Positions 21,979 through 28,969 of a stretch of 29,461 nt of DNA are shown piece after piece. The notes below the pieces were generated by a model. It did not search any database. It had not been told where the DNA came from and saw nothing but the letters and a program-made list of their open reading frames with translations. Origin of the DNA: a virus (lineage: Duplodnaviria > Heunggongvirae > Uroviricota > Caudoviricetes); the IMG/VR virus record IMGVR_UViG_2565956711_000012; one strand, given 5' to 3'. Position 1 is the stretch's first letter. Every line of letters starts with the position of its first letter. A program made the translations under genes and the position numbers.

Positions 21979-22488
21979 CTATGCTTTTCGTAAATCGCAG
22001 GAGTAAGTAACTGACTCCATAACTTTTCGAATAGTGGCTCGTAATTCCATTCCAGATGTAAAACCTGATGCTGAATAAGAGTCGTCTTCTCTTCTATTTG
22101 CCGTCGCTTTTGTAAAAATCTCAGCAACTTGATTGATTGAGTTTTCTGAGTCTTTCTTTCCCGTCACCCCCTCTACGAGTTTTACACATTGATTAACAGC
22201 AGCCAGTGATTCACCGTCAATATCTTTACCACTTGAAAACACCATTGCTGTAACTGCATCTGTACCTAATGCCCAAACGGTACTTACAGTGGAATCTTCA
22301 GTTGTTGCTGTATAAACCTGAACACCATCAACTATGGCTCCTTTTTTCCATTCTGTTTTTTTCAGGACACCCATTTTATCAAATTGAGAAATAAGCTTTT
22401 CATTACCTGTTAGTTCATCTTTATCGAAAAAATAGTGATACCCCCCAACTAAAATAACGGCCAGTATTAATGCATCAGTAAATTTCAT
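21979..22488 (-). CDS. moron: membrane-anchored or secreted protein of unknown function
   Basis: 169-aa ORF; N-terminal hydrophobic stretch (FTDALILAVILVGGYHYFF); clearly AT-rich compared with flanking DNA; GGAG about 7 nt upstream of ATG, inside the end of mor; followed by an intrinsic terminator. Confidence 0.6.
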   Translation of the reverse strand: MKFTDALILAVILVGGYHYFFDKDELTGNEKLISQFDKMGVLKKTEWKKGAIVDGVQVYTATTEDSTVSTVWALGTDAVTAMVFSSGKDIDGESLAAVNQCVKLVEGVTGKKDSENSINQVAEIFTKATANRREDDSYSASGFTSGMELRATIRKVMESVTYSCDLRKA

Positions 22489-22491
22489 ATG

Positions 22492-22902
22492 TTACTCCCT
22501 GCCAAATAAATCCAGTTGATGCTTGCGGTGCTCTAGTTTACGCATGCGTCTGATGGCTTTATACACCGTTTTATAGGTAACACGGTAACGCTCAACCAAC
22601 TCTGTGATGTTTCTGCCATTGAAATCACGCCAGATTTTCATATCACGAATCAATGACTCAAGAGTCTGGCCGCGTGGGAAATAAATCTGCATACCGCCAA
22701 TCTGACAGCTAATCGCGTAAACCAGCTCCAGAGAGATACGTGGGTCAACGCCATGCTTTGTCAGTTCGCCACGCAGCAGCGTATTCAGTTCTGTCAGCAG
22801 TGCAGGGAAACGCACTGTTTCCGCCGAACTGTCATCGTCCAGGTGCTCCAGAATGCTGTCATCCTGGATATCACCAAACAGATCATTCTGCTTTTCGCTC
22901 AT
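22492..22902 (-). CDS. mor: middle-operon regulator Mor (Mor/C family transcription activator)
   Basis: 136-aa ORF; DLFGD near the N-terminus, FPALLTELNTLLRGEL, IRDMKIWRDFNGRN and C-terminal HTH YKTVYKAIRRMRK match Mor as I recall it; sits right after the gemA-like gene as in Mu. Confidence 0.8.
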   Translation of the reverse strand: MSEKQNDLFGDIQDDSILEHLDDDSSAETVRFPALLTELNTLLRGELTKHGVDPRISLELVYAISCQIGGMQIYFPRGQTLESLIRDMKIWRDFNGRNITELVERYRVTYKTVYKAIRRMRKLEHRKHQLDLFGRE

Positions 22903-24149: not shown

Positions 24150-24677
24150 TTAATCAGTTACAGTTTGTTCAAATGGGATTATTTCAAAATCCTCAACATC
24201 TGATTTAATGGATATTCCTGCAATTCCCTTAACTTCATTCGGTGATGCAAGAATTGCCTCTTTGTTTATTTCCTCTTTATTGCGAAGAAATTTACCCAGA
24301 CTAAATTTTTTGAGTAACGCAATAACATCTTCAACTTTGCGAATAGTGACGCTGGGTGGTCGTTTACGCCAGCGAACCTCACCCGTTGTCAGGTTAGCAG
24401 TCTTGGTCTTACCGTCTTTGGTCAGTTCTGCACGGTTAGCTTCACACCATGTCTGAACGCCAGCCTGCAAACGTCCAAGCTCTTTTTTAAGCGCTTCAAT
24501 GCCGGGCGCAACATCATTTGTCAGGGCCGCTATTTTGTCATTCAGTTCCGTTTCACGGCGCAGAATGACACGGGTAATATCGCCAATCTTGCGGATGTCG
24601 CTGATTACGTCATCGCGGCATTGAGGAACGGCGACAGCAGCGGCTGATTTTGCGCGGGGCTTTTTGGGTGCTTTCAT
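24150..24677 (-). CDS. gam: host-nuclease inhibitor Gam (Ku-like DNA end-binding protein)
   Basis: Start at internal ATG (MKAPKKPRAKSAAAVAVPQCRDDVISDIRKIGDI...; cat at 24675-24677). Motifs KSAAA, RKIGD, TWCEANRAELT, VKTANLTTGEVRWR, IIPFEQ agree with Mu Gam as I recall it. Confidence 0.75.
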   Translation of the reverse strand: MKAPKKPRAKSAAAVAVPQCRDDVISDIRKIGDITRVILRRETELNDKIAALTNDVAPGIEALKKELGRLQAGVQTWCEANRAELTKDGKTKTANLTTGEVRWRKRPPSVTIRKVEDVIALLKKFSLGKFLRNKEEINKEAILASPNEVKGIAGISIKSDVEDFEIIPFEQTVTD

Positions 24678-24684
24678 ATAAACC

Positions 24685-24936
24685 TCAGTGTTTAATAATT
24701 TTACGGTTATCCAGATCAACTTTCTGTTTTGCAAATTCAGTGACCTGCTGGATAGCCATTGGAAAAATAGCTGACAGTCCTTCCGCAACCAGATACGAAA
24801 ATGAACCATCATCATTGGCGTTGTTAAGGTGAAAACTGATAGCGAGCTTTCCTGAGTTCTCACCGGTTTTAACCATTTCCCCGTTTTTAATTACCGCATC
24901 ATCCTCGAGAATAATGGTGATTACCTGTTTAGCCAT
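24685..24936 (-). CDS. small hypothetical early protein (AT-rich gene)
   Basis: 83-aa ORF immediately upstream of gam; lower GC than neighbours; no recognisable motif. Confidence 0.45.
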   Translation of the reverse strand: MAKQVITIILEDDAVIKNGEMVKTGENSGKLAISFHLNNANDDGSFSYLVAEGLSAIFPMAIQQVTEFAKQKVDLDNRKIIKH

Positions 24937-24948
24937 CTCACACCTCCA

Positions 24949-25239
24949 TTAATTACCTTTATAAATAATGTTAAATACCTGACTGCGAGACATTTCCATT
25001 TTTTCGGCGATAACCGATATGGTCAGTCCCTCCCTGTAAAGTTCACGACACAAATATGCGTCGTCTTCATTTCCCGCTCTGATGCGTAGCGAAAGGCCCT
25101 GCCTAATGGCGCAATTCTGCACTGACTGTTTAGAGCGCCCCAGTTGCAGTGCCAGACCGCTTACACTTACCTTTCCCGCGTTCTGTTCAAGAATGCGGAG
25201 TTCTTCACGTGACCATGCTCTCCCCGTACTCCAGCCCAT
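24949..25239 (-). CDS. small HTH DNA-binding protein (GcrA-like N-terminal motif)
   Basis: Start set at ATG giving MGWSTGRAWSREELRILEQ..., preceded by GGAGG 7 nt upstream; the ORF-track start at 25263 is a TTG. WSREEL...GLALQLGRSKQSVQNCAIRQGL resembles GcrA-type HTH; second HTH-like segment LTISVIAEKMEMSRSQVFNIIY. Confidence 0.45.
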   Translation of the reverse strand: MGWSTGRAWSREELRILEQNAGKVSVSGLALQLGRSKQSVQNCAIRQGLSLRIRAGNEDDAYLCRELYREGLTISVIAEKMEMSRSQVFNIIYKGN

Positions 25240-25241
25240 AC

Positions 25242-25481
25242 TTACCTCCAGATAATCCGGCAACCTTCCAGACTGGCTACCCAGACGGAGCGGGTGCCGC
25301 CGTTGTGTGTTTCTGATATACGGGATGCACTACGCACCAGCTCTGTTGGTGGGCAGACAATCTCCAGTAACGGGCGACGCATGAAAACCCGAACGTCAGT
25401 GACACGGCTACCACGGGAGCGAAGCCAGTTCTGCGCCGCCTCTGCCATGCTGATGTGTTCTGCAATACGTTCAGTAATCAT
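25242..25481 (-). CDS. small early protein at the position of Mu kil (function unknown)
   Basis: 79-aa ORF starting a few nt after the B stop; identity with Kil not established. Confidence 0.35.
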   Translation of the reverse strand: MITERIAEHISMAEAAQNWLRSRGSRVTDVRVFMRRPLLEIVCPPTELVRSASRISETHNGGTRSVWVASLEGCRIIWR

Positions 25482-25485
25482 GGTG

Positions 25486-26424
25486 TTATTCCTCGTTCAG
25501 ATTGCTGTGACCCAGTTCCAGCATCGCAGACTGGATGTGTGACGTACCGATGGTCTCACCCTTGCCCTGTGCATAAATCCCCGCCAGCGGAAGGATGTGA
25601 GACAGAGAACGGAGAGCGCCGGGACGACGGGCGATCATCTTCAACAGTTTCCGTTCCTCCTGTCCGCTGACCTGCCAGGCATCACAAAAACTGTCCACAT
25701 CTCCGGCTGATACGGTATTGATGACGTATTTTTTAGAGACGCGGGAGAACAGACGGGCGAAGTCCACACTGCGTTGTCCACCTGTCAGGCGGTCGTAGAC
25801 TTTATGGTTTCCGACCAGCGCCAGACCAACACCGCATTCCTCCTGGAGAATACGCAATTCTTCTACGGCATCCAGACTCAGCCAGTCAGCTTCATCCACA
25901 ACAATCAGACCACGCGTATCCGGCAGGCGCTGGCGTAACAGACGGGACAAAGCACCGCGACGATATGGCGCGTCAGCAATCCCCATTTTCAGTGCCAGTT
26001 CGTAAAGCGTTTCCAGTTCGTTGCTGCGGGACTTGCTGGCGGTGATATGCCAGACATTGTTGCCAGTCGCGGCATACTGTCTGATGGCTTTTGTTTTACC
26101 GACGCCGGGATTGCCGTATACCAGTACAATCGTTCCGGCCAGTTGCGCCCACGTCAGGGTGGCGAGAATTTTTTGTGAGGTCGGTGTTTCAACGAAATCC
26201 GGAGCCACGGGCAACGAGGTTTTTGCGGCGTTGTGGCTTTCCAGCCAGGTATTCAGGCTGGCGGCAACCGTATCGTTATCGCCCTTGTATTTCCCGTTAA
26301 GAAACTGAGAGACCGTAGCCGTTGAGGTGCCGGTTTCACGCGCCAGAGCTGCGCCTGAAATAGCTTTGCTGTCAATTAGTTCACGAATGGCACTACGCAC
26401 AACATCATGGTTAATTTGCGTCAT
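25486..26424 (-). CDS. B: transposition ATPase / target DNA activator MuB
   Basis: Walker A GNPGVGKT; N-terminal HTH region; start placed at the internal ATG (MTQINHDVV...) giving about 312 aa, since the ORF-track start at 26448 is a TTG. Confidence 0.85.
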   Translation of the reverse strand: MTQINHDVVRSAIRELIDSKAISGAALARETGTSTATVSQFLNGKYKGDNDTVAASLNTWLESHNAAKTSLPVAPDFVETPTSQKILATLTWAQLAGTIVLVYGNPGVGKTKAIRQYAATGNNVWHITASKSRSNELETLYELALKMGIADAPYRRGALSRLLRQRLPDTRGLIVVDEADWLSLDAVEELRILQEECGVGLALVGNHKVYDRLTGGQRSVDFARLFSRVSKKYVINTVSAGDVDSFCDAWQVSGQEERKLLKMIARRPGALRSLSHILPLAGIYAQGKGETIGTSHIQSAMLELGHSNLNEE

Positions 26425-28738: not shown

Positions 28739-28969
28739 TCTGCGATCCTTAAATATTTACTCGTTGCGGTGAACTAAACTGCTCACCTTTACGTGTAAAA
28801 ATATAGCACACAAAAAATCGAATTCAATCTTTTTGTCAGTCTTTTGTCGGTTTAATCAAATCTAAATAAATCGAATTTAAGTCTTTGATTTTTGTGAAAG
28901 CATGTTTTTACACCATAAAAAATCGAATCGAATTTTTTGTGAGCCAGAAAAAATCGGAAACAGGAGGTA
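28739..28969. promoter_or_regulatory. early operator / divergent promoter region between ner and c (Mu O1-O3 and enhancer equivalent)
   Basis: 231-bp AT-rich non-coding region with two repeat families: AAAAATCGAAT (about 28812, 28866, 28918 and a degenerate copy near 28950) and CTTTTTGT(C/G) (about 28829, 28840, 28888, 28933). Confidence 0.6.
28798..28829 (-). promoter_or_regulatory. candidate sigma-70 early promoter (Pe) driving ner-A-B
   Basis: On the minus strand: TTGAAT, 16-nt spacer, TATATT, placed about 60 nt upstream of the ner ATG. Confidence 0.4.

Follow-up and report, generated by a model that had tools for sequence, protein, structure and literature searches.

Small Genes in the B-gam Interval of a Mu-Like Prophage

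The DNA analyzed here (the window, 29,461 nucleotides [nt]) is the IMG/VR virus record IMGVR_UViG_2565956711_000012, assigned to the Caudoviricetes. The study was centered on an interval of 797 nt (24685–25481) located between homologues of the phage Mu genes B and gam, where three small open reading frames (ORFs) on the minus strand encode proteins of 79, 96 and 83 amino acids (aa). An earlier note, made from the letters alone, had described three uncharacterized small genes of the semi-essential early region by gam, and their presence was confirmed at 25481–25242 (ORF79), 25239–24949 (ORF96) and 24936–24685 (ORF83). The sequence comparisons described below identify ORF79 as the orthologue of Mu kil and ORF96 as that of Mu gp9 (E8), and ORF83 is specific to one phage lineage. 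These three genes are probably accessory genes of a long Mu-like early operon, in a region that is for the most part ordinary.

The interval was identical (100%) to positions 445416–446212 of the Escherichia coli ECONIH5 chromosome (NZ_CP026202.1), and a second E. coli chromosome showed 99.4% identity to it. The RefSeq annotation around the interval in ECONIH5 describes a Mu-like prophage with a DNA-binding protein at the repressor position, a Ner-like helix-turn-helix (HTH) protein, a transposase, an AAA ATPase (B), small hypothetical proteins, Gam, gp16/GemA, Mor and a GH108 lysin. In the window, the neighbors were identified with Pfam and PHROGs as MuB (PF09077), Gam (PF07352), GemA (PF06252) and Mor (PF08765), all of them on the minus strand. 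No DNA-level match was obtained when the region was compared by megablast with the INPHARED sequenced phages, and the element is known as a prophage only.

The genes are closely packed. B (25486–26424, minus strand, 312 aa; PF09077 and AAA_22, 47.5% identity to MuB) ends with a stop codon at 25488–25486, and the ATG of kil (25481) is found 4 nt further on; the Shine-Dalgarno sequence of kil, GAGGA (25490–25494, minus strand; this and the following ones were read from the sequence), lies partly within the last codons of B. The stop codon of kil (25244–25242) is separated from the ATG of ORF96 (25239) by only 2 nt, which suggests translational coupling from kil to the gp9-like gene. The strong Shine-Dalgarno sequence that had been noticed before ORF96 is GGAGG (25245–25249, minus strand), overlapping the last kil codons. 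ORF83 follows ORF96 after 12 nt and is also preceded by GGAGG (24943–24947, minus strand), and the GAGG Shine-Dalgarno sequence of gam overlaps the stop codon of ORF83. Intergenic gaps across the interval were of 2–12 nt, and each ORF has its own Shine-Dalgarno site. The gam gene (24150–24677, minus strand) encodes 175 aa with 57% identity to Mu Gam (PF07352, E 3e-37). A longer version of 237 aa starting at a GTG at 24863 (24150–24863), which appeared in the mechanical ORF list and overlaps ORF83 out of frame, was rejected in favor of the ATG at 24677, because Mu Gam aligns from residue 1 and the Shine-Dalgarno sequence and the RefSeq call agree with this start.

Consensus scans detected no promoter-like or terminator-like sites on the minus strand between B and gam (26424–24677), and the best promoter-like site found by this means on that strand was located at 28827–28800, upstream of ner. 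No Rfam families, notable repeats or local inverted repeats were found in the interval. The operon, in the order ner, A, B, kil, gp9-like gene, ORF83, gam and onward, would most likely be transcribed from an early promoter upstream of ner, and the three genes of the interval would most likely be translated in a coupled fashion.

Selection was estimated against the diverged copy of E. coli ECONIH4 (73–84% nucleotide identity). The ratio of nonsynonymous to synonymous substitution rates (dN/dS) was 0.105 for kil, 0.225 for ORF83 and 0.027 for each of B and gam; dN was 0.133 for ORF96, with a saturated dS. The three ORFs are real, co-oriented and tightly coupled early-operon genes under purifying selection.

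ORF79 and Mu Kil

ORF79 (25242–25481, minus strand) is the first gene after B and encodes a small and very basic protein (isoelectric point [pI] 11). As anticipated from its location at the kil position, this protein was found to be 54% identical to Mu Kil over the full length of the Mu protein (blastp, E 9e-27), and phrog_2743 matched it from end to end (profile positions 1–75 of 75, E 2.4e-35). The Pfam family PF26843 (Kil_protein) is recorded on proteins that are 97–99% identical to the ECONIH4 copy of Kil, which correspond to approximately 89% identity to ORF79. The alignment of ORF79 with the Mu, Klebsiella, Raoultella and Pluralibacter copies contained 24 invariant columns, including a C-terminal GC-x-x-IWR motif. 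Moreover, B is immediately followed by kil in Mu and in each of the 18 related loci covering the B-kil junction. To judge from its sequence, ORF79 is clearly the orthologue of Mu Kil (gp5; PF26843; phrog_2743), with which it shares the position right after B, the size class and the RP-LE-PP-EL and RS-W-A-GC-x-x-IWR core. ORF79 differs from the Mu protein in five extra N-terminal residues and in a second cysteine, C42.

The description of this gene as uncharacterized could not be maintained, since a phenotype has been published for Mu kil. Its expression is reported to give rise to spherical E. coli cells, suggesting that elongation is blocked (Waggoner et al., 1989, as cited in PMC3961180). 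Mu Kil is reported to have no significant sequence similarity to the FtsZ inhibitors Kil of lambda and Rac, and the cells become spherical, not filamentous (PMC3961180). In addition, deletion of the semi-essential region restores host viability after infection by the replication-defective MuBam phage, which carries a B amber mutation (PMC3325207). By homology with Mu Kil, the most likely effect of ORF79 is death or arrest of the host through a block of rod-shape elongation, and the cells would round up. No solved structure or target of Mu Kil was found, and the literature searches gave nothing past the 1989 phenotype. At permissive thresholds, no match for ORF79 was obtained with PADLOC, NCBIfam or a Pfam set that does not include PF26843.

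ORF96 and Mu gp9/E8

ORF96 (24949–25239, minus strand; pI 9.4) showed 46% identity to Mu gp9 over 87 of its 96 residues (blastp, E 1.5e-24). With tblastn, the gp9 locus was matched in Mu, D108, SfMu, Yersinia Mu-like phages and Klebsiella phage Kp4866-3, and weaker matches were obtained in phage D6, Dibbivirus phages and Vibrio phages. The family phrog_323, labeled "transcriptional regulator, D5-like", also matched ORF96 (E 1.8e-22). A search with the gp9/E8 profile retrieved 131 relatives, nearly all of them unnamed. The core of the family in an alignment of 44 sequences is the invariant HD-x-x-LCRELY-x-x-GL ... IA-x-KME; L63, C64, G71, I77, A78, K80, M81, E82 and I91 were invariant in 44/44 sequences, D60 and L72 are invariant as well, and H59 is near-invariant, ORF96 itself having D at position 59.

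By these sequence criteria, ORF96 and Mu gp9/E8, an early protein classed as conserved hypothetical, are orthologues. The two share their length (96 vs. 95 aa), their place in the early operon and the HD-x-YLCRELY-x-EGL ... IA-x-KME core. They differ in their neighbors: gp9 is the last gene before gam in Mu, after gp6–gp8, whereas ORF96 directly follows kil and ORF83 intervenes before gam. No published function of gp9/E8 was found in the literature searches, and the distant gp9-like genes of phage D6, a Vibrio phage and Pantoea phage PSKM were all located among unannotated small genes. To call ORF96 uncharacterized, as had been done, was an overstatement for an orthologue of a conserved hypothetical protein of Mu.

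In the RefSeq table of ECONIH5 no coding sequence is given for the gp9-like gene (window 24949–25239), and RS02300 is missing between C2U48_RS02295 and RS02305. The same sequence is annotated in NZ_LR536431.1 as WP_023277389.1; this is an annotation gap with no difference in sequence.

The structure of ORF96 was modeled with AlphaFold2, giving a mean predicted local distance difference test score (pLDDT) of 74. Two three-helix bundles were predicted, at residues 11–47 (helices 11–20, 26–33 and 37–47) and 58–94 (helices 58–69, 74–81 and 85–94), joined by a linker (48–57) with pLDDT below 50 at residues 53–55. The predicted template modeling score was 0.41, and the two domains are probably independent of each other in the model. 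The N-terminal domain, which resembles the DNA-binding domain (DBD) of GcrA (residues 9–50), is encoded at 25090–25215, and the C-terminal one, of HTH_23 or resolvase/transposase type (residues 58–94), at 24958–25068, both on the minus strand; the latter holds the family-invariant core. HTH_23 scored 30.5 bits on the second domain (Pfam cut-off 24.6). Two HTH-like segments, the first of them GcrA-like, had been noticed in the sequence, and both were borne out by the AlphaFold2 model, HTH_23 and hhalign, the likeness to GcrA being at the level of the fold.

The top whole-chain matches of ORF96 in Foldseek were the DNA-binding domain of Tc3 transposase (1u78) and the CRISPR-repeat-binding protein Cbp2 (2lvs), and the gp9/E8 family profile matched Cbp2 at E 9e-5. 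As in the bipartite HTH domains of Tc3 (1u78), Pax paired (1k78) and archaeal Cbp2 (2lvs), the model of ORF96 presents two three-helix HTH subdomains and a short flexible linker in approximately 100 residues. ORF96 carries no transposase or other catalytic domain, and its DNA binding is predicted. The linker and second domain also aligned with residues 121–182 of gamma-delta resolvase, the C-terminal HTH of a serine recombinase (family profile E 0.003); by contrast, HTH_7 reached 20.5 bits on ORF96, under its cut-off of 23.8, and the N-terminal catalytic domain with the active-site serine is not present. Among the relatives, some proteins of 150–166 aa carried a second GcrA-like module (P0030, P0031, P0104 and P0110) or an extra HTH_23 (P0077 and P0105), which is consistent with modules that read DNA independently. 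ORF96 is predicted from its model to be an ordinary bipartite HTH DNA-binding protein. The permissive searches of PADLOC, NCBIfam and Pfam gave ORF96 only generic HTH matches (mad1, CasR, Cbp1 and Csa3 HTH), all far below the cut-offs.

The resemblance to GcrA raises the question of whether ORF96 could be a methylation-reading transcription factor of this type, sensing the N6-methyladenine state of phage or host DNA. The GcrA DBD was the best structural match to the N-terminal domain, which in the model is a three-helix DNA-binding domain of GcrA type; the hhalign comparison with GcrA gave 93.5%, and PF07750 matched 21 of the 44 gp9/E8 relatives at E ≤ 1 (best 1.1e-5). ORF96 itself, however, had no match to PF07750 even at this threshold. 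In GcrA of Caulobacter crescentus (PDB 5yiu/5yiv; PF07750), the sigma70-interacting domain comprises residues 108–173 and the methyl pocket is formed by R33, N34, I37 and G38 (PMC5887438), whereas ORF96 ends at residue 96, has a second HTH at residues 58–94 and no sigma70-interacting domain, and shows K37, Q38, Q41 and N42 at the pocket positions, in columns that vary across the gp9/E8 family. ORF96 is GcrA-like at the level of the domain fold, yet it is not a GcrA, and a methyl-reading role is extremely improbable. An N-terminal domain similar to the GcrA DBD has also been reported for the A1 protein of phage T5 (bioRxiv 10.1101/2022.08.27.505566), so this module recurs in phage early proteins.

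A small HTH protein beside variable small genes (ORF91 and ORF83 are downstream in relatives) is also what would be expected of an Aca-like autorepressor, controlling a downstream accessory or anti-defence cassette from its own promoter. This function is quite improbable for ORF96. By consensus scans only, no promoter-like site or inverted-repeat operator was detected in or around the gene; ORF96 is translationally coupled to kil; and the gene that follows differs in the Klebsiella lineage (a 206-aa gene) and in Mu (gam).

ORF83, a Lineage-Specific Gene

ORF83 (24685–24936, minus strand; pI 5.5) is the only truly unknown gene of the three, and is one of many small phage ORFans. It had been described as an AT-rich gene for a protein with no recognizable motif, in agreement with its content of 40.1% GC (52.3% in the window) and with the searches of Pfam (all 12 family members, E ≤ 10), NCBIfam and PADLOC, in which no match was obtained, none of these being a dedicated anti-defence library. 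The only family matched was phrog_18464 (full length, E 7.5e-50), which is unannotated, and no INPHARED sequenced phage encodes a relative of ORF83 detectable by tblastn. A word-indexed search of 5.8 billion proteins yielded 15 clusters, all at least 61% identical to ORF83. In an exhaustive search of 1.84 billion representatives with a HMMER profile, one full-length cluster was recovered, and the rest were truncated or frameshifted copies and weak partial matches in long proteins. The gene is carried by 5 of 5,426 complete E. coli genomes and by nine IMG/VR contigs.

The family alignment comprised 12 sequences with identities down to 65% and had 28 invariant columns. The invariant blocks AKQ-ITI, DDGSFS, AEGL and DNR flank a variable segment, residues 13–30 (24847–24900, minus strand), and K17 is the sole invariant column between D12 and L31. 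Against the ECONIH4 copy, dN was 0.233 for ORF83 and 0.020 for gam, that is, approximately ten times higher. The AlphaFold2 model, built with the 12 sequences, had a pLDDT of 54, with low-confidence N-terminal strands and a helix at residues 52–75, and the Foldseek search of BFVD gave nothing below E = 1.

Two candidate relationships were discarded. A phmmer match of ORF83 to the designed repeat protein 8erw was taken as compositional, and no stretch passes alone. ORF83 was also considered as a diverged Mu gp7/E6 (both are of approximately 85 aa and start with MAK-VI-I); this was rejected after blastp gave no match, hhalign aligned 8 residues with a probability of 0.8%, and the Smith-Waterman comparison reached z = 1.2 against shuffles.

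In some assemblies (P0002, P0014, P0024 and P0027), the copies of ORF83 were frameshifted or had lost internal segments in frame (59 and 76 aa), and these are either assembly errors or decay in resident prophages. Such truncated and frameshifted variants, together with the AT-rich composition, the lack of a family, the low-confidence model and the absence from Mu, would be expected if ORF83 were a chance ORF or a decaying remnant without function. This is very improbable in view of the dN/dS of 0.225 over 252 nt at 73% nucleotide identity, the 28 columns invariant in 12 sequences, the GGAGG at proper spacing, and the length (83 aa) and position fixed in all full-length copies. The spurious-ORF explanation, like the Aca-like and methyl-reader explanations of ORF96, fails specific tests.

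Comparative Anatomy of the B-gam Interval

The comparison of the B-gam interval among relatives, which had been proposed as a check, revealed a cassette site in which kil is fixed. In Mu the order is kil-gp6-gp7-gp8-gp9-gam. The arrangement of the window, kil-gp9-like-ORF83-gam, was also found in loci L004, L014/L022 and L018–L020. An additional gene, ORF91, is inserted in ECONIH4 and L023–L026 (kil-gp9-like-ORF91-ORF83-gam). L013 presented kil-gp8-like-ORF83-gam, the gp8-like gene encoding a 148-aa protein that resembles Mu gp8 (z 7.8), and L021 only kil-ORF83-gam. In the Klebsiella, Raoultella and Pluralibacter lineage, kil is followed by a gp9-like gene, in some cases with an ORF91-like gene between them, and then by a 206-aa gene in the place of gam, with no ORF83. 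The B-gam interval is a cassette site, with kil always in first place and with gp6, gp7, gp8, gp9, ORF91 and ORF83 variably present. The gp9-like gene is common yet dispensable, because close relatives lack it, and ORF83 is limited to one gam-bearing lineage.

ORF91 (91 aa; L002 4699–4974, L007 3722–3979, L008 3552–3830) behaves as a "floating" cassette gene, following the gp9-like gene in the lineage of ECONIH4 and preceding it in the Raoultella and Pluralibacter prophages. The 206-aa gene (L005 5067–5687, L006 4289–4909) is conserved at the place of gam in Mu-like phages of the Klebsiella lineage such as Kp4866-3. No gam was found in the Klebsiella-lineage loci examined, and the 206-aa gene may provide an alternative end-protection or recombination function.

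In all four ORF83-bearing architectures seen, ORF83 is located directly upstream of gam, at 7–8 nt, even where other cassettes have been lost or swapped (L021 and L013). ORF83 might then be a partner of Gam that modulates the protection of DNA ends or offsets a cost of Gam, such as immune sensing of end-binding proteins. The absence of ORF83 from the Klebsiella/Raoultella lineage, which is also without gam, agrees with this, as does the proposal, in one preprint abstract (PMC12407980), that RecBCD-antagonizing end-binding proteins sensitize phages to Gabija. Nevertheless, this co-occurrence is confounded by shared ancestry in one lineage, and Mu has Gam without ORF83; a partnership with Gam is distinctly unlikely.

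The earlier note had considered the three genes as the most plausible carriers of novel function in the early region, where host-takeover and anti-defence functions are carried. This remains a guess based on position. No link of the three genes to anti-defence was found: the PADLOC profiles were without matches in ORF79 and ORF83, and in ORF96 they matched only weakly, as generic HTH. That ORF96, ORF83 or both are novel effectors of this kind, for example inhibitors of restriction, CRISPR or other immunity, is unlikely, even with the mosaic character of the site (at least five architectures among the relatives) and two host-directed neighbors, kil and gam. ORF83 does have features typical of host-interaction genes, as it is AT-rich, narrowly distributed and fast-evolving (dN 0.233, compared with 0.020 in gam), with a variable segment. 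However, its dN/dS of 0.22 indicates purifying, not diversifying, selection over the whole gene, it has no Pfam, NCBIfam, PADLOC or fold match, and the literature searches gave nothing; ORF96, for its part, is basic and carries HTH domains, as would be expected of a regulator more than of an inhibitor.

Proposed Roles of the Three Genes

We favor, as probable, the explanation that kil, the gp9-like gene and ORF83 are accessory genes of a Mu-like early operon in a mostly ordinary region, and the biochemical activities that we infer for their products are the following. ORF79 would act on cell shape, as described above for Mu Kil. ORF96 is most likely a bipartite reader of DNA, composed of a GcrA-DBD-like module and a resolvase/transposase-type HTH with a flexible linker of approximately 10 residues; each module would contact one half-site, as in the DNA-binding domains of Tc3, Pax or Cbp2, and the protein would serve in early regulation or as an architectural factor. 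For ORF83, the best guess is an accessory early factor that would bind a host or phage protein, possibly in connection with Gam.

Several observations weigh against this explanation. For ORF79, the PHROG label "septation inhibition" conflicts with the published spherical-cell phenotype, although this label is probably a name transfer, because no sequence relationship is reported to join Mu Kil to the lambda and Rac Kil proteins and its phenotype is one of spheres; furthermore, the phenotype would be carried over from a protein that is 54% identical. The prediction of DNA binding by ORF96 was made on a moderate-confidence model (pLDDT 74), the whole-protein Foldseek E-values were not significant (0.05), because the relative orientation of the domains is undefined in the model, and no candidate binding site or repeated site was found near the genes. 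Since some copies of ORF83 are frameshifted or have in-frame deletions, prophages at least can dispense with it. No positive evidence was obtained for any function of ORF83; its adjacency to gam is the only functional hint, and it is confounded, since all the carriers belong to one phage lineage.

A more ambitious combination would make ORF83 a new family with a new fold, acting as a host-directed effector (anti-defence, or a modulator of Gam/RecBCD) with residues 13–30 as a specificity loop, among enterobacterial transposable prophages of a rare lineage, and, separately, Mu gp9/E8 a novel class of DNA-reading phage proteins assembled from GcrA-like and resolvase-like HTH modules. Taken as a whole, this combination is doubtful. 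If the part concerning gp9/E8 were true, a function would be assigned to a gene of Mu that has been without one ever since the genome sequence became available.

In the explanation that we favor, this is a semi-essential early region of the ordinary Mu type, and no new concept is needed: two of the genes join known Mu families and the third is a lineage-specific ORFan. As a predicted bipartite DNA-binding protein, Mu gp9/E8 gains a testable structural annotation in one of the best-studied phages. The map of the B-gam cassettes defines a place where transposable phages can be searched for accessory functions. ORF83 could be included at low cost in a screen for anti-defence or host-takeover activity, but nothing yet marks it out among small phage ORFans.

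Other Features of the Prophage

At its repressor end, the ECONIH5 prophage borders narX, which is annotated as an incomplete gene whose C-terminus is missing (L001 11067–12779, past the right end of the window), and the prophage appears to have transposed into narX.

Right after gam, an ORF of 218 or 236 aa (window 23404–24060/24114, minus strand) matched phrog_9763 (E 9e-110), and its C-terminal region of approximately 100 residues matched nine or more further unannotated PHROGs, which differ widely in length. The same slot is occupied in relatives by versions of 189–201 aa (57–65% identity) or by a Mu gp14-like gene (L018), or holds none (L014). This ORF is another mosaic early gene.

Additionally, an AT-rich ORF of 169 aa (21979–22488, minus strand), with the hydrophobic N-terminus MKFTDALILAVILVGGYHYFF, was found between mor and the GH108 lysin gene, in a bin (22001–22500) of 37.8% GC. 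No Pfam, PHROG or PADLOC match was obtained for it. In ECONIH4 this slot contains a gene of another length (107 aa), and for this reason it looks like a moron or accessory slot.

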